A stretch of DNA of 42,342 nt from an uncultured Clostridia bacterium (GTDB lineage: Bacteria; Bacillota; Clostridia; TANB77; CAG-508), in the NCBI GenBank assembly GCA_944393755.1, contig CALYBF010000002.1:1-42342 (forward strand). The letters are read 5' to 3'. Made by a program: the position numbers and the translations under genes. The notes under the pieces were generated by a model. It ran no database searches. It saw nothing but the letters and a program-made list of their open reading frames with translations, and was not told where the DNA came from. Shown here in pieces: positions 2,962 through 39,482 of this stretch (within the stretch, counting starts at the first letter, position 1; each line of letters opens with the position of its first letter).

Positions 2962-3405
2962 ATGCGTATGTCAGATATAATAGAAGAATTTATAAAAGAA
3001 TTATTTGATGAAGGAAATGATGCAATAGAAATACAAAGAAACGAACTTGCAGAACATTTTAATTGTGTACCATCACAAATAAACTATGTAATATCAACAA
3101 GGTTTAAACCACAACAGGGATATTATGTAGAAAGTAGACGAGGTGGCGGTGGTCATATAACAATAAAAAAAGTAAATAATGATAAAGAAGATTATATAAT
3201 GCATATTATAAATAATATAGGAAATGAATTAACATCAAATGATGCAGATATATTAATAAGCGACTTTCTATCTTATAATATAATAGATACAAAAGAAGCA
3301 AAATTATTAAAAGTAGCAACAAACGATAAAGTGCTGAAACTTCCAAAAGAAATAAAAGATGAAGTAAGAGCAAGAATATTTAAAAATATGTTATTAAATA
3401 TATAA
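2962..3405 (+). CDS. ctsR: Class III stress-gene transcriptional repressor CtsR
   Basis: Characteristic CtsR sequence (MSDIIEEFIK..L, VPSQINYVISTRF, GYYVESRRGGGGHI). It is the first gene of a ctsR-mcsA-mcsB-clpC arrangement with its own operators upstream. Confidence 0.95.
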   Translation: MRMSDIIEEFIKELFDEGNDAIEIQRNELAEHFNCVPSQINYVISTRFKPQQGYYVESRRGGGGHITIKKVNNDKEDYIMHIINNIGNELTSNDADILISDFLSYNIIDTKEAKLLKVATNDKVLKLPKEIKDEVRARIFKNMLLNI

Positions 3406-3418
3406 GGAGGAGATAATT

Positions 3419-3988
3419 ATGTTATGTGATAATTGTGGGAAAAAAGAAGCAAATGTAAGATATACAGAAAACATTAATGGAAAGGTAAGAGAATTAAATC
3501 TATGTGAAGAGTGCAGTAAAAAATTAGGAATAGGAGAAATAGACTTTAGTATGCCAATAGACTTTTCAAGTTTCTTGGGAGGCTTTATGGATGATTTAAT
3601 GACACCAGAAATAATGCCAATGATAAGTAGCTTAAAAGAAATAACTTGTGAAAATTGTGGAACAAGTTTTAATGATATTATGAATACAGGAAAAATAGGC
3701 TGTGAAAATTGTTATTCAGTATTTGAAGATAGATTAGACCCAATAATAAAAAGAATACAAGGATCAAATAGACACGTAGGAAGAATAGGAAAAATAATAG
3801 ATAATAAGATAGATAAAAAAGAAGGAAAAGCAGAAGAAAAAATGGAAACAAAATCTAAAGAAAATACTGATAATAGTAATGAAAACAAATTAGAAGAATT
3901 ACAAAGAAAATTAAAACAAGCAATAAAAGAAGAAAGATATGAAGACGCAGCAAAACTAAGAGATGAAATAAAGAAATTAGAAAAATAA
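3419..3988 (+). CDS. mcsA: McsA, protein-arginine-kinase activator (zinc-finger plus UVR motif)
   Basis: N-terminal CxxC..CxxC pairs (CDNCGKK..CEECSKK; CENCGTS..CENCY) and a C-terminal UVR motif (ERYEDAAKLRDEIKKLE). Its position is between ctsR and mcsB. Confidence 0.9.
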   Translation: MLCDNCGKKEANVRYTENINGKVRELNLCEECSKKLGIGEIDFSMPIDFSSFLGGFMDDLMTPEIMPMISSLKEITCENCGTSFNDIMNTGKIGCENCYSVFEDRLDPIIKRIQGSNRHVGRIGKIIDNKIDKKEGKAEEKMETKSKENTDNSNENKLEELQRKLKQAIKEERYEDAAKLRDEIKKLEK

Positions 3989-14790: not shown

Positions 14791-14841
14791 ATAAATATGC
14801 GTTAGCAATATTTGTTGGTCAAAGTGTTGCAAGGAGAAAAA

Positions 14842-15315
14842 ATGACTGAGACGATTGGAACGACGATTCTGAGGAAGATGGAAGAAGGGCAAGACAAGCT
14901 TTACTTTATAAATGAGATTGGTAGGATAGATGCAGTAATAGATGATGATACAAATATGGCAGAAGGAGTTTTACACATAACTATTTGTGCTGCAACACCT
15001 AAAAAGGAAGTGGAGAGTAAAGAAGAACTGACAAAGAATATAATTCAAGTTCTTATTGGATGCTTTTCTGAAGACGGAGAAGAAACTGAGGGATGGTGGA
15101 AGAACGTATCTAAGATTGATGCTAGTATTCGACTAGGAAGTCCTTTCTCAGAAAACTATTTTACATCCTATGATGTTCCGATTGTTGTAGCAAGAGATGC
15201 TTACGACCCAGAAGCTATTTTTGATTCTTGGTATCTTGAATATAAAGATGCTGAGTTCCAAAACTCAATAACTCCATATGATGACTGGGTGATGTGGGAA
15301 TTAGAGTGCATATAA
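14842..15315 (+). CDS. Hypothetical acidic cytoplasmic protein (157 aa)
   Basis: ATG-14842 is preceded by AAGGAGAA. It has no TM segment or signal peptide and no family was recognised. Codon usage and GC are visibly different from its neighbours, and it has its own promoter and a strong terminator. Confidence 0.6.
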   Translation: MTETIGTTILRKMEEGQDKLYFINEIGRIDAVIDDDTNMAEGVLHITICAATPKKEVESKEELTKNIIQVLIGCFSEDGEETEGWWKNVSKIDASIRLGSPFSENYFTSYDVPIVVARDAYDPEAIFDSWYLEYKDAEFQNSITPYDDWVMWELECI

Positions 15316-18771: not shown

Positions 18772-21700
18772 ATGGAGTGGACTAAAGAACAAAAGCAAGC
18801 AATCGAAGAAAAAGGTTCTAATATATTAGTTGCAGCAGCAGCAGGTAGTGGAAAAACAGCAGTGTTAGTTGAAAGAATTATAAAAAAAGTATTAAAAGAC
18901 GGAATAGATATAGATAAATTATTAGTAGTTACATTTACAAATGCGGCAGCTGCTGAAATGAGAGAAAGAGTATTAGATGCAATATATAAAAAATTAGACG
19001 ACAACCCTAATTCTGAGAAATTATTAAGACAAATAACATTATTAAATAAAGCAAGTATATGTACAATAGACTCTTTTTGTTTAGATGTAGTTAGAAATAA
19101 TTTTTATGAATTAGAAAATCTATCTCCAAATTTTAGAATAGCAGACACAACAGAAATAGAACTTCTAAAACAAGAAGTAATAGAAGATTTATTTGAAAGA
19201 AAATATGAAGAAGAAAACGAAGATTTTACAAAATTAATTCATACATATACATCATATAAAGATGATACACCTCTAAAAGATTTAATACTAAAAATATATA
19301 ATTATATACAAAGTAACCCTTTCCCAGAAAAGTGGCTAAGAGAAAAGATAGAAATGTTTAATATTGGAGAAGATTTAGATAAAGATTTTTCTGATACAGT
19401 ATGGGGAAAAGTTTTATTAGAAGAAATAAAAGAAGATTTAACAGACGCAATAACATCATTAGAAAGTGCAAGAAAGCTACTTTACGATAATAAAGATTTA
19501 GAAGGTTATTTAAAAATAATAGAACACGATATTGATATGTTAAATAATCTAAAAGCAAATTTAAATAATTGGGATAATGCATATGAAATAAATAAAGTAT
19601 TAGAATTTATAAAATGGAGTGGTAAAAGAATAGATTCTAAAGAAAAAGAAGAGGCAAAAAATATTAGAGATTCTGTAAAAGATAATTTAAAAGTTTTAGA
19701 TAATATATTAGTATGTGATTCAAAAACAGCAAATAGAGATATTTTTGATATGTATAATATATTATTAAAATTAGAAAATATAATATTAGAATTTGGAGAA
19801 GAGTTTTCTAAAAGAAAAAGAGATAAAAATATAGTAGATTTCCAAGATGTGGAACATTTTGCACTTAAAATATTAATAAAAGAACAAGACGGAAAAATAG
19901 AAGATACTTTAGTTGCAAAAAAATACCAAGAAAAATACGAAGAAATTGCAATTGATGAATACCAAGATAGTAACTTAGTACAAGAATATATATTAAATTC
20001 CGTGTCTAGGAAAACTAATATTTTTATGGTTGGTGATGTTAAACAAAGTATATATAAGTTCCGCCAAGCTATGCCTGAATTATTTATTAGTAAATATAAG
20101 ACTTATAAAAATAAAGAAGATAAAAAAGAAGAAGATAATTTAAAAATACAATTATTTAAAAACTTTAGAAGTAGGGAAAATATATTATATTTTACTAATT
20201 TAATATTCCAAGATATTATGAGTGATGGTTTAGGAGATATTAATTATAATGAAGATGAATATTTAAACTTAGGAGCAGATTATAAAGAAAGTAAAGAAAA
20301 TTTAAATACAGAAATAGATATTATAGATCTATTAGAAGATGAAAAAGAAAACTTAAAAGAAAGTTACAAAGAAAATGAAGAAAATTCAGAAGATGAAAGA
20401 ATTGAAGATGTAGAATTAGAAGCGAGATTTGTTGCAAATAAAATTAAAGAATTAATAGATAATAAATTCCAAGTGTGGGATAGGAAGAAAGAAAAATATA
20501 GAGATATATCATATAAAGATATAGTAATTTTATTAAGGTCTACATCAAATATAGCAAGTGTGTATGAACAAGAACTTTTAAATTTAGATTTGCCTGTATT
20601 TTCTGATAGTTCACAAGAATATTTAGAATCTATAGAAATAGAAACAATAATGAATTTATTAAAAATAATAGATAACCCTATGCAAGATATACCACTTGTT
20701 TCTGTAATGAGGTCATACATAGGTAAGTTTACAGATAATGATTTAGTAAGAATACGTCTATCAGATAAATTTGATAATTTTTATATTTGTATGGAAAAAG
20801 CTCTTGTAGATGTTGATTCTGAATTAAAAGAAAAAATAAAAAGCTTTTTTGATAAACTTGATATGTGGAGAAAAGAACAAGAATATTTATCTTTAGATGA
20901 GCTTATTTGGAAGATTTATTGGGATACTGGATATTACAATTATTGTGGTCTTATGCCAAATGGTGTTTTAAGACAAGCAAATTTAAAAATGTTATTCCAA
21001 AAAGCAAAAGAATATGAAAGTTCAAATTTTAAAGGTTTATATAATTTTATAAATTTTATAGACAAAATAAAAACTTCTAGTGGAGATATGGGTTCTGCAA
21101 AACTAATTGGTGAAAACGATGATGTTGTTAGAATAATGAGTATTCATAAAAGCAAAGGACTTGAATTTCCTGTAGTATTTTTATCAAGCACAGGTAAACA
21201 ATTTAATTTAAACGATTTAAAAGAAGATGTATTATTACATCAAGATATGGGAATAGGTGCAAAATACATAGATTATGATATGCAAATTAAATATGACACT
21301 CTAAGTAAAAGAGCAATTAAAGATAAAATATTAACAGAAACATTATCTGAAGAAATGAGAATTTTATATGTTGCTTTAACTAGAGCAAAAGAGAAATTGT
21401 TTATTACAGGAATTAGTAAAGATATTAAAAAAGAATTAGAAAAAATAGATGCAAATATTGAAAGATATGAAAAACAAGATAATAAAATAAACCCTATTTT
21501 AATTAAAAAATGTAAAAAATATCTAGAGTGGATATTATATGTATATCAATATGAAAAGAATTCTTGTAAAGACAAAATAGATTTTAATATTTACAAAAAG
21601 AAAGAATTACTTACAAAGTTTAAAAAAGTAGATAATGAAGAAATAGATGTGTTTAATGAGTTAGAAGAAAAGTCAAAAGAGTATAAAAATGATTTTAGTG

Positions 21701-22401
21701 ATATTAAGAAAATATTAGAATATAAATATAAAAATATTTTAGATACAACTATACCTACTAAAACTTCTGTTACAGCTTTAAAGGACTTAAGTAATAAAAA
21801 TAATAATGTGAAAATAGAAGAGAAAGAAGAACAAAAAGAAATAAGTTTTAAAGAGCCTAATTTCTTAAAAAATGGAAAAGAAGAAAAGATAACAGCAAGT
21901 AAAAAAGGTAGTTTAATACATCTTTGTTTACAAAAACTAGATATTAATATAGATTATGATTTAGCTAAAATTACTAATTTATTAGATGAATTAGAGATGA
22001 AAAAAATTATTACTCCTAAAGAAAAAGAAGCCATTAATGTAAACAAAATTTTAGAGTTTACTAAATCTAAGATATGGGAAGAATTAAAAACAGCTAAAAA
22101 AATTGAAAAAGAAAAACCTTTTTATATAAATATTAAAGCAAAAGATATTTATAATAAAGAAACTGATGAAAATATACTTGTTCAAGGTATTATAGATTTA
22201 TATTATATAGATAAAGATAATAATATAAATTTAGTTGATTATAAGACTGATTACATTGAAAATGGTAATGAAATAGAATTAGTAAATAGATATAAAGAAC
22301 AATTATATTTATATAAAAAAGCTTTAGAACAAGTGTATAAAAAAGAAGTTAAAAATACATATATTTATTCAGTATATTTAAATAAAGAAATAAGAATATA
22401 A
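18772..22401 (+). CDS. addA: ATP-dependent helicase/nuclease subunit A (AddA/RexA)
   Basis: UvrD-like motifs (WTKEQKQAIE, AAAGSGKT, VVTFTNAAAAEMRER, IDEYQDSN, VGDVKQSIYKFR, IMSIHKSKGLEFPVVF, LYVALTRAKE) and a C-terminal RecB-type nuclease motif (GIIDLYY....LVDYKTD). Confidence 0.93.
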   Translation: MEWTKEQKQAIEEKGSNILVAAAAGSGKTAVLVERIIKKVLKDGIDIDKLLVVTFTNAAAAEMRERVLDAIYKKLDDNPNSEKLLRQITLLNKASICTIDSFCLDVVRNNFYELENLSPNFRIADTTEIELLKQEVIEDLFERKYEEENEDFTKLIHTYTSYKDDTPLKDLILKIYNYIQSNPFPEKWLREKIEMFNIGEDLDKDFSDTVWGKVLLEEIKEDLTDAITSLESARKLLYDNKDLEGYLKIIEHDIDMLNNLKANLNNWDNAYEINKVLEFIKWSGKRIDSKEKEEAKNIRDSVKDNLKVLDNILVCDSKTANRDIFDMYNILLKLENIILEFGEEFSKRKRDKNIVDFQDVEHFALKILIKEQDGKIEDTLVAKKYQEKYEEIAIDEYQDSNLVQEYILNSVSRKTNIFMVGDVKQSIYKFRQAMPELFISKYKTYKNKEDKKEEDNLKIQLFKNFRSRENILYFTNLIFQDIMSDGLGDINYNEDEYLNLGADYKESKENLNTEIDIIDLLEDEKENLKESYKENEENSEDERIEDVELEARFVANKIKELIDNKFQVWDRKKEKYRDISYKDIVILLRSTSNIASVYEQELLNLDLPVFSDSSQEYLESIEIETIMNLLKIIDNPMQDIPLVSVMRSYIGKFTDNDLVRIRLSDKFDNFYICMEKALVDVDSELKEKIKSFFDKLDMWRKEQEYLSLDELIWKIYWDTGYYNYCGLMPNGVLRQANLKMLFQKAKEYESSNFKGLYNFINFIDKIKTSSGDMGSAKLIGENDDVVRIMSIHKSKGLEFPVVFLSSTGKQFNLNDLKEDVLLHQDMGIGAKYIDYDMQIKYDTLSKRAIKDKILTETLSEEMRILYVALTRAKEKLFITGISKDIKKELEKIDANIERYEKQDNKINPILIKKCKKYLEWILYVYQYEKNSCKDKIDFNIYKKKELLTKFKKVDNEEIDVFNELEEKSKEYKNDFSDIKKILEYKYKNILDTTIPTKTSVTALKDLSNKNNNVKIEEKEEQKEISFKEPNFLKNGKEEKITASKKGSLIHLCLQKLDINIDYDLAKITNLLDELEMKKIITPKEKEAINVNKILEFTKSKIWEELKTAKKIEKEKPFYINIKAKDIYNKETDENILVQGIIDLYYIDKDNNINLVDYKTDYIENGNEIELVNRYKEQLYLYKKALEQVYKKEVKNTYIYSVYLNKEIRI

Positions 22402-22440
22402 AAGCACTACCACAGTGATTTTTTGCTGTGGTAGTGCTTT
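22401..22440. terminator. Bidirectional terminator between addA and a convergent small gene
   Basis: 15-bp perfect hairpin AAAGCACTACCACAG (22401-22415) / CTGTGGTAGTGCTTT (22426-22440). Confidence 0.8.
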
Positions 22441-22446
22441 GGATAA

Positions 22447-22710
22447 TTAATAGAAAATTGCATAGACAAAGATAATTAATGTAGCAACTTTTCTCAAAAT
22501 TGTAACTTTATCTTTCAACAGATCTCTTCCAAGGCTGAAGAAAGATGAAGCAAGCAATACTGTTATCGAAATCTTTTTCAAATACGAAGTATAAATATTT
22601 GGTTCGACAAGAGAAAGTACTATAAGCACAACGCCAAACAGAATTGCTACAATACTAACAAGATTGTCAATAACATTATCCCGTTCTTGATTCCTTTTCT
22701 CATCATCCAT
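22447..22710 (-). CDS. Hypothetical small membrane protein (87 aa, about 3 TM helices)
   Basis: ORF with a GGAG RBS (complement of 22716-22722). It is a hydrophobic helical protein and no family was recognised. Confidence 0.5.
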   Translation of the reverse strand: MDDEKRNQERDNVIDNLVSIVAILFGVVLIVLSLVEPNIYTSYLKKISITVLLASSFFSLGRDLLKDKVTILRKVATLIIFVYAIFY

Positions 22711-22811
22711 TTTTTTCTCCTAACCCTAGTCTAGATTTGGATATATTACAAAGGCATTTGCCCTGATGTAAAAGTATTTTAACACATATTTACATAATTT
22801 GCAATAAGTTA

Positions 22812-23357: not shown

Positions 23358-23369
23358 TAAAATTAAAAA

Positions 23370-23399
23370 GGAAGAAGAGCTTATTTGAGCTCTTCTTCC
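23370..23399. terminator. Bidirectional terminator, shared by 22872-23357 (+) and the peptide gene (-)
   Basis: 12-bp perfect hairpin GGAAGAAGAGCT (23370-23381) / AGCTCTTCTTCC (23388-23399). Confidence 0.7.
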
Positions 23400-23405
23400 G
23401 TGATA

Positions 23406-23573
23406 CTAACTAAAAACGGAAACGCACGTTACTCCACAGCCGTTTTTGCATTGTCCGTTGCAATTTGGACACCCAATCTCATAGATTGGAGTCATTGGCT
23501 TCTTTTGGCTAGAGTCAAAAGAATCAAGCTTCTTTTCGAGCATAGAAAGCTCTTGCTTAGACAACGAAAGCAT
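23406..23573 (-). CDS. Cys-rich RiPP precursor peptide candidate (55 aa): MLSLSKQELSMLEKKLDSFDSSQKKPMTPIYEIGCPNCNGQCKNGCGVTCVSVFS
   Basis: Hand-translated minus-strand ORF that is absent from the ORF track. ATG is the complement of 23571-23573 and TAG is the complement of 23406-23408. A GGAGGAG RBS lies 4 nt upstream. It has a helical acidic/basic leader and a C-terminal C-x2-C-x3-C-x3-C-x3-C core. It sits 96 nt downstream of, and co-oriented with, the rSAM/SPASM gene, with a terminator right after it. Confidence 0.75.
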   Translation of the reverse strand: MLSLSKQELSMLEKKLDSFDSSQKKPMTPIYEIGCPNCNGQCKNGCGVTCVSVFS

Positions 23574-23669
23574 TTCTCCTCCTTAATTGGACTGTTGATT
23601 ACATTGCCTAACAACAATTAATGTTATGGATATAGCATTTTAATCACCTCCTAGATGAGGGGACGAATG

Positions 23670-24776
23670 TTATATACAAAGTTCTTGGTTCAAGCTGTAA
23701 ACTGAACTAAGAACTCTGTAATCATCGTATGTCAAAGAAGAAGTTGGCTTTGACATAATACGATGAAATTTAACATAAGCATTAAACATAGCAATTAATT
23801 TATTAAATTGGCAATGTTCCTTATCTCTCTCGTTTATTTTGCCAGTCAATGAATAATTCATACCATAACAAGTAGAACAAACATTGTTTAATATACAGTT
23901 TTTACATTTAGGATCTGCTAGATTAGATTCATCTTCAAATAGAAGAGTATCTAAATCTATTGGTTTACCTTGTGTTAACTGCATAAATGATTGGCAAGGA
24001 AAACAATTTCCTTCAACATCATAGGCTTTCATTTGCTTTCCAGCACCACACCATCTTGTAGGAGTGGTAACTTGAGAAGAGATATATTCCAAACGCAAAT
24101 CTAGAATTTCAGCAATTGGAACAAGAGGGTGATCTAGATAATATTGTGCTAATATGTCCAATTGTTTTTCCAAAATAGGAAGGTCTATATCTAGATCCCA
24201 ATTGATTCCGAAAGCAAAACTACCAGAACAGGCAAACCCAAAACTTTGAATAAAAATAATTCCTTCAGCCAAATTAGGTAAAGATTCTCTAGAAACAGTC
24301 ATTTTTATGTCTTGTTGAGGCCAGCAATGCTTGAAAAAACCTATGTCAATAAGGTCAAAAGAATTGCTTCTATTGATATTGTGCATTTGCCTAGTTCCGT
24401 CTAGACTTATTCCGACACAGAAACTTTCTTTGTTTATTTCGAGCCAATCTTGAATTGAGCCGTGAATAAGTGTGCCGTTTGATGTAGAAAAACATATTCT
24501 GCGATGAGGGCTTTGGATAGAGAGTACATAATCGTGTATTTCTTTCAGCAATTCGAATTCAAGAAATGGTTCTCCACCAAACAAATCTACTTCAATAAAA
24601 TCAAAGCCGTCTTGCAGAGAAAACTCATAATCAAGAATCTTTTTTGCTGTTTCAAAACTCATACTTCTAGGAGATTTACAGTGCTCATAACAGTAAGAAC
24701 AATTCAAATTACATTTTTCTGTTACTGTAAGCATTACTGTTTTTCTTCCTTCAAAGTCGAATACTGTTGCACTCAT
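23670..24776 (-). CDS. Radical SAM enzyme with C-terminal SPASM domain (peptide-modifying maturase, anSME-like)
   Basis: CNLNCSYCY is a CxxxCxxC radical-SAM cluster motif at residues 22-29, and GGEPFL is a SAM-binding motif. SPASM-type auxiliary-cluster cysteines are also present: WCGAGKQMKAYDVEGNCFPC and CKNCILNNVCSTCYG....HC. Confidence 0.88.
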   Translation of the reverse strand: MSATVFDFEGRKTVMLTVTEKCNLNCSYCYEHCKSPRSMSFETAKKILDYEFSLQDGFDFIEVDLFGGEPFLEFELLKEIHDYVLSIQSPHRRICFSTSNGTLIHGSIQDWLEINKESFCVGISLDGTRQMHNINRSNSFDLIDIGFFKHCWPQQDIKMTVSRESLPNLAEGIIFIQSFGFACSGSFAFGINWDLDIDLPILEKQLDILAQYYLDHPLVPIAEILDLRLEYISSQVTTPTRWCGAGKQMKAYDVEGNCFPCQSFMQLTQGKPIDLDTLLFEDESNLADPKCKNCILNNVCSTCYGMNYSLTGKINERDKEHCQFNKLIAMFNAYVKFHRIMSKPTSSLTYDDYRVLSSVYSLNQELCI

Positions 24777-24826: not shown

Positions 24827-24855
24827 ATTATAATATATATCTTTTGTTATGTCAA
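24827..24855 (-). promoter_or_regulatory. Consensus sigmaA promoter of the rSAM-peptide operon
   Basis: On the minus strand: TTGACA (complement of 24850-24855), a 17-nt spacer, then TATAAT (complement of 24827-24832). It lies about 50 nt upstream of the rSAM start. Confidence 0.7.
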
Positions 24856-24943: not shown

Positions 24944-24973
24944 AGTAAAAAAAGAGAAGCGGTTTGCTTCTCT
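24944..24973 (-). terminator. Rho-independent terminator of rqcH
   Basis: On the minus strand, directly after the stop: AGAGAAGC / GCTTCTCT hairpin (24953-24973) followed by a T-run (plus-strand A-run 24946-24952). It insulates rqcH from the rSAM cassette. Confidence 0.7.
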
Positions 24974-26683
24974 TTAATGGTTCTTAGGGTTAACATATAA
25001 AGTATTATAATTTGTGTAAATAACCATACCAGGTTTTGCACCTTTTGGTTTTTTAACATATTTAATAGGGCAAGTATCAACAGCAACATTTGAAGAAAAT
25101 CTTGCTTTGCTGTGGTATGCAGTAATTTCAGCACATTTAGTAAGCACATTTTCATCTGGTGTTTTATTATCTAAAATAAGAACTGCGTGGCTTCCGTGCA
25201 TGTCTTTTGTATGAAACCATATATCAGTTTTCTTAGCAAATTTTAAAGTTAAGTAATCATTTTCTTTATTATTTCTTCCAACTAATAAAGTAAAACCATC
25301 TATTATATATTTTAAAGGGTTAAAGTTTGTATTTTTATTTTTAGTAAGGTTAGACTTTTTAATTTTAGATTGTTTCTTAGTGTTTAAGTTTTTAGTTTTT
25401 TCTTTAAAAATATCATTTTCAGAAATCTCATCTAAAATTATACCAATTTCTTCAACAGAAGTAGCATTTTCTAATTCATAAACAACACTTTCAATATAAT
25501 CTAGTTCTTCTAAAGTCTCTTTTTTTTGAACAGAAACTATTTTTAAAGCATTTTTTAGTTTATTATATTTTTTAAAAAATTTTTTAGCATTAACAGAAGG
25601 AAGATATCTTTCATCTAAAGGAATTGTTATTAAATTATTGTTATCATAATAATTTTCTAAGTCAATTGTTTTTAAATTTTTATTAGGTATTTTATAAAGA
25701 TTAGCAGTTATGAGTTCTCCATATAATCTATATTTATCCATATTTTCACAATCTTTTAATTTATTATTAATACTTTCTAGTCTTTTATTATATTTTTTTA
25801 GAGTAGATAATATTAATTTTAAAACATTGTTACGGTTAGTTTTTAATTCTTCAGAAGTTTCTTTTTTATAATAGAAATCATCTAAAGAAAAATTAATAGA
25901 AAAATTATCACAATTATTGTCATCTGAAATAAGAAAATAATCTTTATCAGTTTTTTCTATTTTTAATTTTAAAGAATCAGTCCTATTAATAATGTCATTT
26001 AAAAAATTATAAATTTCATCTAAATTATTAAAATTATATTTTTCTAAAATAAATGAAATATAATTTTTACTAATACCATTATAATTATTACTAATTGCTT
26101 TTGAAATTAAGTTTTTGTCTGTTATTTTTCCTATATTTCCTAAAGAGGTTTTAAAACCATCTAAACTTTCTAATAAAAAATCTTTTTTACTAATTTTAGG
26201 ATATGTATATTTAATATGTGGTATTACAATATGTGTTGAATTTTCATTATTAATATGGCGAAGGCTATCTATTATAATGTTTTGGTCATCTAAAAGAATA
26301 ATATTACAATGTTTTCCCATAAGTTCTATTATTAGTTTTTTAGAAATAATATCATCTATATCATCAAAACCTTCAAACTCAATTGTAATAATTCTTTCTA
26401 AAGAATTTGTAATAATATTTTTAATACGTAAACCTAATAAATGTTTTCTTAAAACCATACAAAAATTAGGTGCTGTTTTAGGGTTTATCCAAGTTTTTGT
26501 TGTTAAATTCACTCTATAATTTTGAGGGTTTGTTGAAATATTTAAAGCATAATTTATTTTATCTAAATAAAAACCTAAAATAACAGTATTGTTATTTGGT
26601 TGGAATATTTTATCAATTCTAGCCTCTGTAAGTAAATTAAGTTCTGAAGCAACAGCTTTTGTTACAATTCCGTCATATGGCAT
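24974..26683 (-). CDS. rqcH: NFACT-family ribosome quality control protein RqcH (formerly fibronectin-binding protein A-like)
   Basis: N-terminal NFACT-N (MPYDGIVTKAVASELN....RIDKIFQP), a coiled-coil middle and C-terminal NFACT-R (DIWFHTKDMHGSHAVL, PGMVIY). Confidence 0.9.
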   Translation of the reverse strand: MPYDGIVTKAVASELNLLTEARIDKIFQPNNNTVILGFYLDKINYALNISTNPQNYRVNLTTKTWINPKTAPNFCMVLRKHLLGLRIKNIITNSLERIITIEFEGFDDIDDIISKKLIIELMGKHCNIILLDDQNIIIDSLRHINNENSTHIVIPHIKYTYPKISKKDFLLESLDGFKTSLGNIGKITDKNLISKAISNNYNGISKNYISFILEKYNFNNLDEIYNFLNDIINRTDSLKLKIEKTDKDYFLISDDNNCDNFSINFSLDDFYYKKETSEELKTNRNNVLKLILSTLKKYNKRLESINNKLKDCENMDKYRLYGELITANLYKIPNKNLKTIDLENYYDNNNLITIPLDERYLPSVNAKKFFKKYNKLKNALKIVSVQKKETLEELDYIESVVYELENATSVEEIGIILDEISENDIFKEKTKNLNTKKQSKIKKSNLTKNKNTNFNPLKYIIDGFTLLVGRNNKENDYLTLKFAKKTDIWFHTKDMHGSHAVLILDNKTPDENVLTKCAEITAYHSKARFSSNVAVDTCPIKYVKKPKGAKPGMVIYTNYNTLYVNPKNH

Positions 26684-37097: not shown

Positions 37098-37135
37098 AAA
37101 AAATACAGAGAGTTTTAATTATTCTCTGTATTTTT
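37098..37135. terminator. Bidirectional terminator between DUF2207 paralog 2 and smpB
   Basis: Hairpin TACAGAGA (37104-37111) / TCTCTGTA (37123-37130) flanked by an A-run and a T-run. It overlaps the last smpB codons. Confidence 0.6.
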
Positions 37136-37577
37136 CTTTCATTGCTTGTTCGATTTTTCTTTTAGCATCTTTTTTGGCTATATCTTGTCTTTTGTCATAC
37201 AGTTTTTTACCTTTACCAATGCCTAATTCTACTTTAAGCAAACTTCCTTTAAAATATAAGCTAATAGGAACTAAACTATAGCCTTTTTGTTTAGTTAAGC
37301 CAATTAATCTATTAATTTCTCTTTTGTGTAACAAAAGCTTTCTATCACGTAAAGGATCTTTATTAAAAATATTTCCATACTCATATGGGCTAATATGCAT
37401 ACCAACAATAAAAACTTCACCATTTTTAATTATTGCATAACAGTCTTTTAAATTAACTTTTCCTGCTTTAATAGATTTTATCTCAGTTCCAGAAAGAACA
37501 ATTCCTGCCTCTATTTTATCATCAATAGTATAATTATGATAAGCAGTAGGGTTTTTTGCAACTAATTTTGTATTCAT
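37119..37577 (-). CDS. smpB: SsrA-binding protein SmpB
   Basis: Canonical SmpB sequence ([10 protein letters not shown]....EAGIVL.GTEIKS...[31 protein letters not shown], Lys-rich tail). Confidence 0.93.
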
Positions 37578-37789: not shown

Positions 37790-38596
37790 ATGAACAAAAA
37801 GTGGCAGATATATGAAACAGATTTAGAAAGTGTAGAAAAACTAAAAGAAGAATATAAATTAAATACATTGCTTGCTACTATATTAGTAAATAGAGGAATT
37901 ACAAATAAAGAAGAAATACAAAAATTTTTAAAACCGACTAGAAATGATTTTTATGACCCATTTTTAATAAAAGATATGGATATAGCAGTAGAAAGAATAA
38001 TAAAAGCAATTAAAGATAAAGAAAAAGTTATTATTTATGGTGATTATGATGTAGATGGAATTACAAGTATAACTGTACTAAAAAAATTCTTAAAAGATGT
38101 TGGCTTAGATGTATCTTATTATATTCCAAATAGATTAACAGAAGGATATGGCTTAAATAAAACAGCAGTAGAAGAAATTGCAAAAGAAGGATATAGTTTA
38201 ATGATTACTGTAGATTGTGGTATAACTTCAGTAGAAGAAATTGATTTAGCAAGAAGTTTAGGAGTGGAAGTAATAGTAACAGACCATCACGAACCAGGAG
38301 AAGTTTTACCAAAAGCTTTGGCTGTAGTTGATAATAAAAGAAAAGATTCTACATATCCTTTTAGAGATTTAGCAGGAGTGGGAGTTAGCTTTAAAGTTTG
38401 CCAAGCAATTGGGATAAAAATAGGAATAAAAGAAGAAGAATATTTAAAATATTTAGATATTGTATGTGTTGGTACAATATCAGATATAGTTCCATTGGTT
38501 GATGAAAATAGAGTAATTACAAAATTAGGTTTAATGTTAGTTGAAAAAACAAGAAACATGGGGCTTAAATCAATACTAAATTCTTCACGGATATAG
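37790..38596 (+). CDS. recJ: Single-stranded-DNA-specific exonuclease RecJ, N-terminal fragment (DHH domain)
   Basis: DHH motifs: IIYGDYDVDGITS, ITVDCG, IVTDHH, GTISDIVPL. The ORF stops at TAG 38594-38596 two codons after an extra C at 38588. Confidence 0.85.
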   Translation: MNKKWQIYETDLESVEKLKEEYKLNTLLATILVNRGITNKEEIQKFLKPTRNDFYDPFLIKDMDIAVERIIKAIKDKEKVIIYGDYDVDGITSITVLKKFLKDVGLDVSYYIPNRLTEGYGLNKTAVEEIAKEGYSLMITVDCGITSVEEIDLARSLGVEVIVTDHHEPGEVLPKALAVVDNKRKDSTYPFRDLAGVGVSFKVCQAIGIKIGIKEEEYLKYLDIVCVGTISDIVPLVDENRVITKLGLMLVEKTRNMGLKSILNSSRI

Positions 38597-38657: not shown

Positions 38658-39482
38658 ATGGGAAAAGCAAAAGAAGCTTTAGAACTTTTATTATCAAATA
38701 ATATATATGATGTAAATGATTTAACTAAAAAATTAAATGCTCATAATAATGAAAGACAAGAAATAGAAAAATCTATATTTGAAAGTGCGAAAAAACAAAT
38801 AGAAGAAAATCATTTAGATAATAATAGAACATTAGTAGTAGCTGGTAAAGACTGGCATCATGGAGTAATAGGAATAGTATCATCTAAAATAACAGAAATG
38901 TATTTTAAACCAAGTATATTACTTAGTTTTGAAGATGATGGTATTTGTAAAGGCTCAGGAAGAAGTATACCAGGTTTTGACTTACATAAAGCACTAACTA
39001 ACTGTAAAAGCTCTATTGAAAAATTTGGTGGACATAGTATGGCAGTTGGTGTTACAATAAAGAAGGATAATTTGGAAAAGTTTTATAAAGAATTTGAAGA
39101 ACAAGCTAAAAAAGAAAATATAGAACAAATAGTTCCAGTCCTTAATATTGATGCAAAAATTGATATTAATAATATAGATAAACAAATGATAGAAAGCCTA
39201 AGAGAGTTAGAACCTTTTGGAGAAGCAAATAAAATGCCAATATTTGCATTTAAGAATTTGAAAATAGATTCAATAAGAGCATTATCAGAAGGTAAACATT
39301 TAAAATTAACTCTAAAAGAAGGAAATACTATAATAAATGCAATTGGTTTTAATATGGGAGAATTATCAGAAGAATACAGAATTGGTGATAAAATAGATAT
39401 AGCTGGGGTTTTAGAAATAAATACATTTAACGGAGTAGATAGTATGCAAATAAATATAAAAGATATAATGAGAGCTATCTAA
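38658..39482 (+). CDS. recJ: RecJ, C-terminal fragment (DHHA1 and OB-fold region). The frame is open back to 38589.
   Basis: The frame from 38589 encodes GYSKIDSNTISFGVAPRINACGRMGKAKEALELL (the conserved RecJ PR[IL]NA.GR motif). It continues with HHGVIGIVSSK, GSGRS and GGH..A.G (DHHA1). Confidence 0.85.
   Translation: MGKAKEALELLLSNNIYDVNDLTKKLNAHNNERQEIEKSIFESAKKQIEENHLDNNRTLVVAGKDWHHGVIGIVSSKITEMYFKPSILLSFEDDGICKGSGRSIPGFDLHKALTNCKSSIEKFGGHSMAVGVTIKKDNLEKFYKEFEEQAKKENIEQIVPVLNIDAKIDINNIDKQMIESLRELEPFGEANKMPIFAFKNLKIDSIRALSEGKHLKLTLKEGNTIINAIGFNMGELSEEYRIGDKIDIAGVLEINTFNGVDSMQINIKDIMRAI

Follow-up and report, generated by a model that had tools for sequence, protein, structure and literature searches.

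A two-gene cassette within core chromosome

The window, by which we mean the whole 42,342-nucleotide stretch of DNA from an uncultured Clostridia bacterium that was analysed, carries on its minus strand a gene for a radical SAM (rSAM)/SPASM peptide maturase, followed by a 55-codon gene for a putative Cys-rich precursor peptide (MLSLSKQELSMLEKKLDSFDSSQKKPMTPIYEIGCPNCNGQCKNGCGVTCVSVFS). The features of this locus are collected in Table 1. The peptide sequence agrees exactly, over all 55 residues, with the hand translation given in the original prediction, and the 96-nt gap claimed between the small gene and a co-oriented upstream rSAM gene was confirmed, with the rSAM stop located at 23670.

Table 1 Features of the enzyme–peptide cassette and the evidence on which each of them was placed
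Feature	Coordinates	Strand	Evidence
Sigma-70-type promoter, TTGACA-17 nt-TATAAT, 12/12 consensus matches	24827..24855	minus	consensus scan
Radical SAM/SPASM peptide maturase gene, 368 aa	23670..24776	minus	profile, alignment, model
Spacer between maturase and precursor genes, 96 nt	23574..23669	minus	gap between genes
Shine-Dalgarno sequence of the precursor gene, AAGGAGGAG	23576..23584	minus	sequence upstream of ATG
Putative precursor gene, 55 codons, ATG start	23406..23573	minus	ORF translation
Leader-coding part, residues 1–34	23472..23573	minus	alignment of subfamily peptides
Core-coding part, residues 35–55, CPNCNGQCKNGCGVTCVSVFS, five Cys	23409..23471	minus	subfamily alignment and codon comparison
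TAG stop codon of the precursor gene	23406..23408	minus	ORF translation
Intrinsic terminator, 12-bp G+C-containing stem, 6-nt loop, T-run	23360..23399	minus	folding z = -5.3

The promoter precedes the rSAM start codon by ~50 nt, lies just downstream of a bidirectional terminator (24951–24975) that ends rqcH, and is the sole perfect consensus match between positions 22300 and 27000. A consensus scan of the 96-nt spacer revealed no promoter-like site on the minus strand; in the related loci L001 and L005 the spacer is only 25 nt long, which argues for co-transcription of the maturase and precursor genes. The Shine-Dalgarno heptamer GGAGGAG named in the original prediction is present at 23582..23576, with a correction to its distance: only 2 nt separate the heptamer from the ATG, and the 4-nt distance applies to the canonical GGAGG. 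An AAGGAGG sequence is conserved 5' of the precursor genes in L008, L001, L005, L014, and L017, and thus in the majority of the relatives. The 12-bp terminator hairpin expected right after the TAG was found at 23399..23370, beginning 6 nt past the stop codon and followed by TTTTT; it folds with -22.4 kcal/mol, a value equalled by 0 of 200 shuffles, and both of its stem arms are conserved in L008, where the loop alone differs. The simplest layout is thus a two-gene unit consisting of promoter, rSAM gene, peptide gene, and terminator.

The spacer also contains, at 23624–23653 on the minus strand, a strong Shine-Dalgarno sequence (AGGAGGTGA) and, 6 nt further on, a four-codon mini-ORF, ATG-CTA-TAT-CCA-TAA (MLYP and stop). 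It is identical in L008 and absent from the relatives found in rabbit metagenome-assembled genomes (MAGs), where the spacer measures 25 nt; it could be a chance occurrence, a remnant, or a translational-coupling element.

According to Pfam and NCBIfam annotation, the whole 42-kb window is core chromosome, with genes for CtsR-McsA-McsB-ClpC, Dxs, MutS2, a PP2C phosphatase, a PASTA kinase, AddA, RqcH, a GH3 hydrolase, DUF2207 proteins, a peroxiredoxin, a PLP enzyme, FBA, SmpB, RecJ, and RelA. No ABC exporter, C39/leader peptidase, immunity gene or other RiPP accessory gene was detected within these 42 kb. Several candidates for additional components were examined and rejected. A riboswitch or other regulatory RNA was dismissed after an Rfam search of the whole window returned no match. 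For a 161-aa membrane protein encoded next to the cassette, tblastn against all loci gave a match in L008 alone, the gene is oriented differently, and it has native composition; the protein is homologous to a neighbouring gene in the rabbit MAGs and is probably a conserved flank, not a part of the system. An 87-aa ORF with two hydrophobic segments (22447–22710, minus strand, raised GC3 of 0.26) was considered as a two-TM immunity gene. It was discarded since it occupies a ~380-bp indel (22407–22785, between addA and the 161-aa gene) that is absent from L008, which is 93–95% identical and has the same cassette.

Base composition sets the cassette apart from its surroundings. GC3 is 0.236 in the rSAM gene and 0.464 in the peptide gene, versus 0.122 ± 0.047 in the other window genes longer than 150 aa, and total GC is 33% and 42%, respectively, versus 22–25% in the flanking genes and 26.4% in the window overall. 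This GC3 outlier (23406–24776) suggests that the cassette was acquired horizontally from a higher-GC donor.

Several further observations concern the rest of the window. The recJ gene is seemingly split on the plus strand into a part with the DHH domain (37790–38596) and a part with DHHA1 and RecJ_OB (38658–39482), ~60 nt apart; a frameshift or an assembly error, a pseudogene, and a true division of the gene could each account for this. A 167-aa TTG-start ORF (14812–15315, plus strand), flanked by mutS2 and the PP2C phosphatase gene, has no Pfam match and the highest GC3 of all large window ORFs (0.31); it may be spurious or foreign. The AddA-type helicase-nuclease gene (18772–22401, plus strand; UvrD helicase and PD-(D/E)XK domains) has no adjacent addB and is preceded by the PASTA kinase gene and a DUF4190 gene. 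No tmRNA gene stands beside smpB (37119–37577, minus strand), and no RNA family was found in the 42 kb at Rfam gathering thresholds.

The precursor gene is conserved at the codon level

The five cysteines of the peptide (positions 35, 38, 42, 46, and 50) form the C-x2-C-x3-C-x3-C-x3-C array that had been read from the sequence originally. Among the 96 small ORFs of the window, two have at least five Cys in their last 21 residues, the second being an obviously spurious antisense ORF. We identified eight homologs of the peptide with 53–93% identity, each of them a called gene in other assemblies. The earlier description of the gene as missed by the ORF track therefore holds for a length threshold of ~60 aa or more and does not extend to the gene callers used elsewhere.

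Conservation is distributed very unevenly along the peptide. Across the nine subfamily sequences the 18 residues from G34 to V51 (GCPNCNGQCKNGCGVTCV) are invariant, while leader identity is only ~38% (counted by hand from the alignment) and the corresponding enzymes are 70% identical. Within the leader, residues 1–18 are moderately conserved with an M-[FL]-x-L-S...L...L pattern, and residues 19–33 are hypervariable, being nearly all different, up to the invariant G34. The amphipathic nature that had been ascribed to the leader finds weak support in a helical hydrophobic moment of 0.36, which 10% of shuffles reach and which is not significant.

An ORF of 55 codons is short, and this peptide has no Pfam or NCBIfam match even at E ≤ 10, as might be expected of a chance open frame without expression. 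The codon comparison points the other way. The last 22 codons of the window gene and of L001 differ at 13 synonymous and 3 non-synonymous positions, with all three replacements in the C-terminal tail (S/A, V/I, F/L), and across lineages the core has accumulated many synonymous and almost no non-synonymous changes. On this codon-level evidence the ORF is a real gene under strong purifying selection in the claimed frame. The Shine-Dalgarno sequence and the terminator are conserved as well, as is the place of the gene beside the enzyme gene. On the opposite strand, the 78-aa ORF that overlaps it does exist (TTG start, 23385..23621, plus strand), and its frame is interrupted by stop codons in L008, L001, and L005, so that its original dismissal as spurious was correct. 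Codon-level conservation thus effectively refutes the chance-frame explanation, to which we assign a negligible probability.

A radical SAM/SPASM maturase without an N-terminal RRE-type domain

The enzyme encoded upstream contains the CX3CX2C motif of radical SAM proteins at C22/C26/C29, which is invariant in 44 homologs (down to 39% identity), and matches the Pfam Radical_SAM model with 37.8 bits against a cutoff of 29.5. The Pfam SPASM model produced no match on this protein. Its C-terminal cysteines, C243-x12-G256-x4-C261, C291-x2-C294-x5-C300-x2-C303, and C322, follow the seven-Cys SPASM signature (C-x9-15-G-x4-C ... C-x2-C-x5-C-x2-3-C ... C), enough for two auxiliary clusters, are all invariant or at least 90% conserved in the 44 homologs, and align to the SPASM region of CteB. 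Together, the CX3CX2C motif and the complete cysteine signature bear out the proposal that the upstream gene encodes a radical-SAM/SPASM enzyme.

The best NCBIfam matches, both full-length, were PapB (E = 7e-41) and TIGR04115 (E = 2e-36), followed by the CcpM, nif11, QhpD, and SCIFF maturases, all far below their cutoffs. CteB is the closest solved relative by sequence and also the best PDB match (TM 0.73) of an AlphaFold2 (AF2) model with a mean pLDDT of 90.3; the structural matches behind it are TigE, anSME, and ChlB. In the alignment with CteB the first paired residues are 97 of CteB and 12 of the window enzyme, and the RRE-bearing N-terminal region of CteB consequently has no counterpart in the latter. 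Consistent with this, the AF2 model has only a disordered 7-residue N-terminus before the barrel, and neither the alignment nor the model contains an N-terminal RRE-type domain. No stand-alone RRE-like gene is conserved near the cassette; the 93/131-aa gene upstream of the rSAM gene in the rabbit MAGs was considered for this role and rejected, having no counterpart in the window. What the model does contain is a C-terminal helical hairpin (residues 319–366) with confident helices at 319–341 and 350–366 beyond the SPASM domain. With no RRE-type domain seen in the maturase, this predicted hairpin may be the element that reads the leader.

The substrate cavity was compared using the six CteB residues chosen by Mitchell and co-workers, F112, F152, T186, S210, H363, and Q364 (PMC10288494). 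In the sequence alignment these correspond to Y30, F66, T98, S124, Q262, and S263 of the window maturase, i.e. three of six are identical and one is a conservative F-to-Y replacement. As this six-residue profile is uncalibrated for PapB and NxxcB, the likeness weakly suggests a CteB-type maturase.

The enzyme–peptide pairing recurs across relatives

The exact core is carried by L008 (95% enzyme identity) and by two rabbit-gut genomes (~70%), all carriers being uncultured MAGs, of Clostridia. In the rabbit MAGs the gene order is AddA, the 93/131-aa gene, rSAM, peptide, a 165-aa gene, and MreB; in the window and in L008 it is the opposite strand that carries the rSAM–peptide unit, flanked by the 161-aa homolog and rqcH. 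The order of rSAM gene and then peptide gene is kept in these different genomic arrangements, indicating that the pair stays together through rearrangement. A search of 1.84 billion representatives with a narrow subfamily profile recovered its own cluster, one chance match, and no further relatives, which makes the exact core a rare one.

Further away, at 39–54% enzyme identity (Acutalibacteraceae and other gut bacteria), each of the seven loci examined singly has an adjacent Cys-rich small ORF with an M-x-(F/L)-x-L-(S/T)-K-type leader and a core of C-x2-3-C repeats. A profile built from diverse members recovered 33 peptide clusters, none of them named; Pfam family PF27846 is precomputed on one distant peptide (P0153). 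The unit common to this wider peptide family is C-x-G-x-C, in which the first Cys is followed, depending on the subfamily, by N, E, A, Q, T, S or K.

The original prediction had proposed looking for the same kind of small ORF beside related rSAM genes. A metagenome scan returned at least 512 stretches with relatives of the enzyme, and among the best 80 of them 78 loci were evaluable for a small ORF within ~500 bp of the enzyme gene. At 54 of these 78 loci such an ORF was present, Cys-rich and co-oriented with the enzyme gene and typically with C-x-G-x-C units, against a background of 54 in 1342 (4%) among their antisense small ORFs. By eye a few of the 54 positives are false, and some of the loci scored as having none may hold precursors with fewer Cys; at nearly all loci with at least 40% enzyme identity the precursor is convincing. 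The pairing of rSAM enzyme and peptide is therefore general in the wider family.

Individual loci provide additional detail. In L016, an uncalled 72-aa Cys-rich precursor (2399–2617) has an IS1595 transposase gene on one side and the rSAM gene on the other, a position that hints at cassette mobility. The most distant enzymes (32–36% identity; L069–L071, L074, L076, L081, and L097) are accompanied by a different type of precursor, located downstream of the rSAM match, with a long acidic leader and then two to three repeats of a C-x-C-x3-CGSNYS-like unit; these enzymes, too, score below the PapB cutoff.

Five cysteines with CxxC/CxxxC spacing could equally bind a metal, and the small protein might then be a Cys-rich metal- or Fe-S-binding partner of the rSAM enzyme (a chaperone, an electron carrier or a regulator) whose real substrate is encoded elsewhere. 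The invariant core would suit a folded or binding function, and no protease or exporter is found nearby. The survey of relatives makes this very unlikely, in our estimation. The number of repeats in their peptides varies greatly, with Cys counts from 4 to 10 or more, and in L015 two precursor paralogs (1867–2061 and 3341–3526) flank a single rSAM gene; both features fit substrates and not a fixed cofactor-binding partner. In addition, the peptide has the layout of a RiPP precursor, in which a conserved helix at the N-terminus is joined through a hypervariable linker to a C-terminus rich in Cys, and the nearest enzyme families are peptide maturases. The earlier reading of the peptide as an rSAM-modified RiPP precursor thus gains support from purifying selection, from the SPASM enzyme, and from a pairing that recurs in distant relatives.

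Proposed maturation and role of the product

We consider it likely that the locus is a minimal two-gene RiPP cassette in which the precursor is cross-linked by its maturase, probably through Cys thioethers. By analogy with characterised systems, we infer that the peptide is the substrate and that maturation would proceed as follows. One promoter would drive the maturase gene and then the 55-aa precursor gene, with the intrinsic terminator closing the unit. The enzyme would bind the N-terminal helical part of the leader (residues ~1–18), and its radical SAM cluster would cleave SAM to yield a 5'-deoxyadenosyl radical, which would abstract a hydrogen atom from acceptor residues of the core. Cys thiols bound at a SPASM auxiliary cluster would trap the resulting carbon radicals, giving a compact peptide with several thioether rings. 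Such a sequence of steps is modelled on PapB, NxxcB, and CteB, in which the thiol sits at an auxiliary cluster, the acceptor loses a hydrogen to the 5'-deoxyadenosyl radical, and C-S bond formation follows (PMC9389541, PMC9413430). Speculatively, the favoured ring would be an NxxC-type link from C42 to N39, because the X-G-x-C unit of the family resembles the NxxC motif of NxxcB and is compatible with the acceptor tolerance of that enzyme; a sactionine link to a Gly C-alpha would be the alternative. Attachment of Cys sulfur to the C-alpha of an acceptor would class the product as a sactipeptide, attachment to C-beta or C-gamma as a ranthipeptide; the resemblance of the maturase to PapB and CteB points indirectly to such classes.

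Other reactions known from SPASM enzymes are C-C and C-O cross-linking, epimerisation, and the oxidation of Cys. The peptide could accordingly be a substrate for one of these reactions or for another conversion of its cysteines, in which case the cysteines would serve as metal ligands or disulfide partners in the product. Such an outcome would be in keeping with the structural neighbours that follow CteB (TigE, anSME with its Cys/Ser-bearing peptide substrates, and the RiPP enzyme ChlB), with the position of the enzyme outside all curated equivalog thresholds, and with the functional diversity of SPASM enzymes stressed in reviews (PMC10114670). We nevertheless judge it unlikely: enzymes working on Cys-rich peptides account for both top-ranking sequence families and for the best structural match, thioether formation is proven for PapB and CteB, and throughout the enzyme family Cys is what is most prominently conserved in the adjacent peptides. 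As for anSME, its recognition motif, C-x-P-x-R, is absent from the window peptide.

SCIFF peptides have been proposed to serve physiology or signalling. The core of the window peptide is invariant and no dedicated exporter, leader peptidase or immunity gene accompanies it; for these reasons the product may, by analogy, have a signalling or physiological role similar to that of SCIFF peptides, rather than that of an arms-race bacteriocin. A more far-reaching version, which we entertain as a tentative possibility, holds that the cassette was horizontally acquired and makes a SCIFF-like, non-bacteriocin peptide whose small rings would be formed by chemistry new to the clade (e.g. Cys-to-Asn or Cys-to-Gly within C-x-G-x-C), that the RRE-less maturase would read the leader via its hairpin, and that the core would fit a conserved cellular or host target.

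Under the preferred reading of a thioether-forming two-gene cassette, the locus is useful to RiPP enzymologists without being surprising in kind. The enzyme family represents a large sequence space, abundant in gut metagenomes, for which there is no curated model; neither a paper on its peptides nor the peptide sequences themselves were found in the searchable literature, most subscription papers lying outside its reach. The window pair is among the simplest members of the family, comprising just two genes and a single short precursor that has five Cys and an invariant core, and this simplicity makes it a convenient test case for enzyme action on C-x-G-x-C peptides, for leader recognition without an RRE, and for the question of physiology or signalling versus antibiosis in stand-alone cassettes. 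PapB is already used as a peptide-cyclisation tool, and a relative with a different acceptor preference could therefore have practical value.

Comparison with known systems

PapB, which matures PapA to freyrasin (NF047865), is the top family for the window maturase, with an alignment covering profile positions 4–329 of 330. Both are composed of radical SAM and SPASM parts, and the NF047865 profile, like the window maturase, starts at the radical SAM core; both precursors carry several regularly spaced Cys. The score of 140.6 bits is, however, far from the cutoff of 340. PapB links Cys to Asp or Glu and tolerates loose spacing, the acceptor motif of PapA being Cys-X3-Asp/Glu (PMC9413430). Unlike PapA, with its Asp (or Glu) acceptors in CX3D motifs, the window core has no acidic residue and thus lacks the native acceptor of PapB, and the window precursor gene lies downstream of the enzyme gene.

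Second come the maturases of CXXX-repeat targets (TIGR04115), also with a full-length alignment and a score of 126.1 bits versus a cutoff of 350. The window core resembles these targets, by eye, in its three consecutive C-x3 units, and the comparison with them made originally is apt as a resemblance. It does not amount to membership, given the score of the enzyme and the lack of any match at E ≤ 10 between the TIGR04114/TIGR04117 target models and the window peptide or four other subfamily members. Some peptides of relatives match these two models weakly (21 bits versus a cutoff of 50, and 15.5 versus 20). In the searchable literature the only mention of TIGR04115 was in an unrelated pig-microbiome study, and no characterised chemistry was found there.

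The relatives behave in the same way, scoring 120–168 bits on the PapB model and 110–158 bits on TIGR04115; none of the 15 tested, distant metagenome ones included, reached either cutoff. The search of HMM collections suggested in the original prediction thus placed the maturase below the cutoffs of all named maturase families and matched the peptide to none, and the reaction cannot be transferred by homology. Judged by these profile scores, the enzyme family is a clade without a curated model, situated between PapB and TIGR04115.

With SCIFF/CteB (thermocellin, TIGR03974) the window system shares, besides the closest solved structure, the format of a two-gene cassette of Cys-rich peptide and maturase in a housekeeping neighbourhood of Clostridia, without an exporter, and a strongly conserved core. 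It differs in the profile score (82.1 bits versus a cutoff of 425), in the lack, in the window maturase, of anything equivalent to the ~95 N-terminal residues that according to the literature form the RRE of CteB, and in a peptide with five Cys in 55 residues and a different motif. The SCIFF gene order is the reverse of the rSAM-then-peptide order of the window.

NxxcB, which modifies NxxcA to a streptococcal beta-thioether peptide, joins Cys to the Asn beta-carbon within NxxC and also accepts Ala, Gln, and Asp (PMC9389541). The window core contains one invariant NxxC, N39-G40-Q41-C42, and the X-G-x-C unit of the family (X = N, A, Q, E, T, S or K) overlaps with the acceptors tolerated by NxxcB, a comparison made at the level of motifs. 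The window differs in its five core Cys and in having no shp/rgg quorum-sensing context, and no NxxcB model is among the 25 listed of the 68 NCBIfam families matched by the maturase. Taken together, the sequence comparisons indicate a system that would work like a ranthipeptide or sactipeptide system and that is, by curated criteria, not a member of PapB, TIGR04115 or SCIFF. What is new here is the family; the class to which it belongs is heavily mined, and the kind of system is not new.
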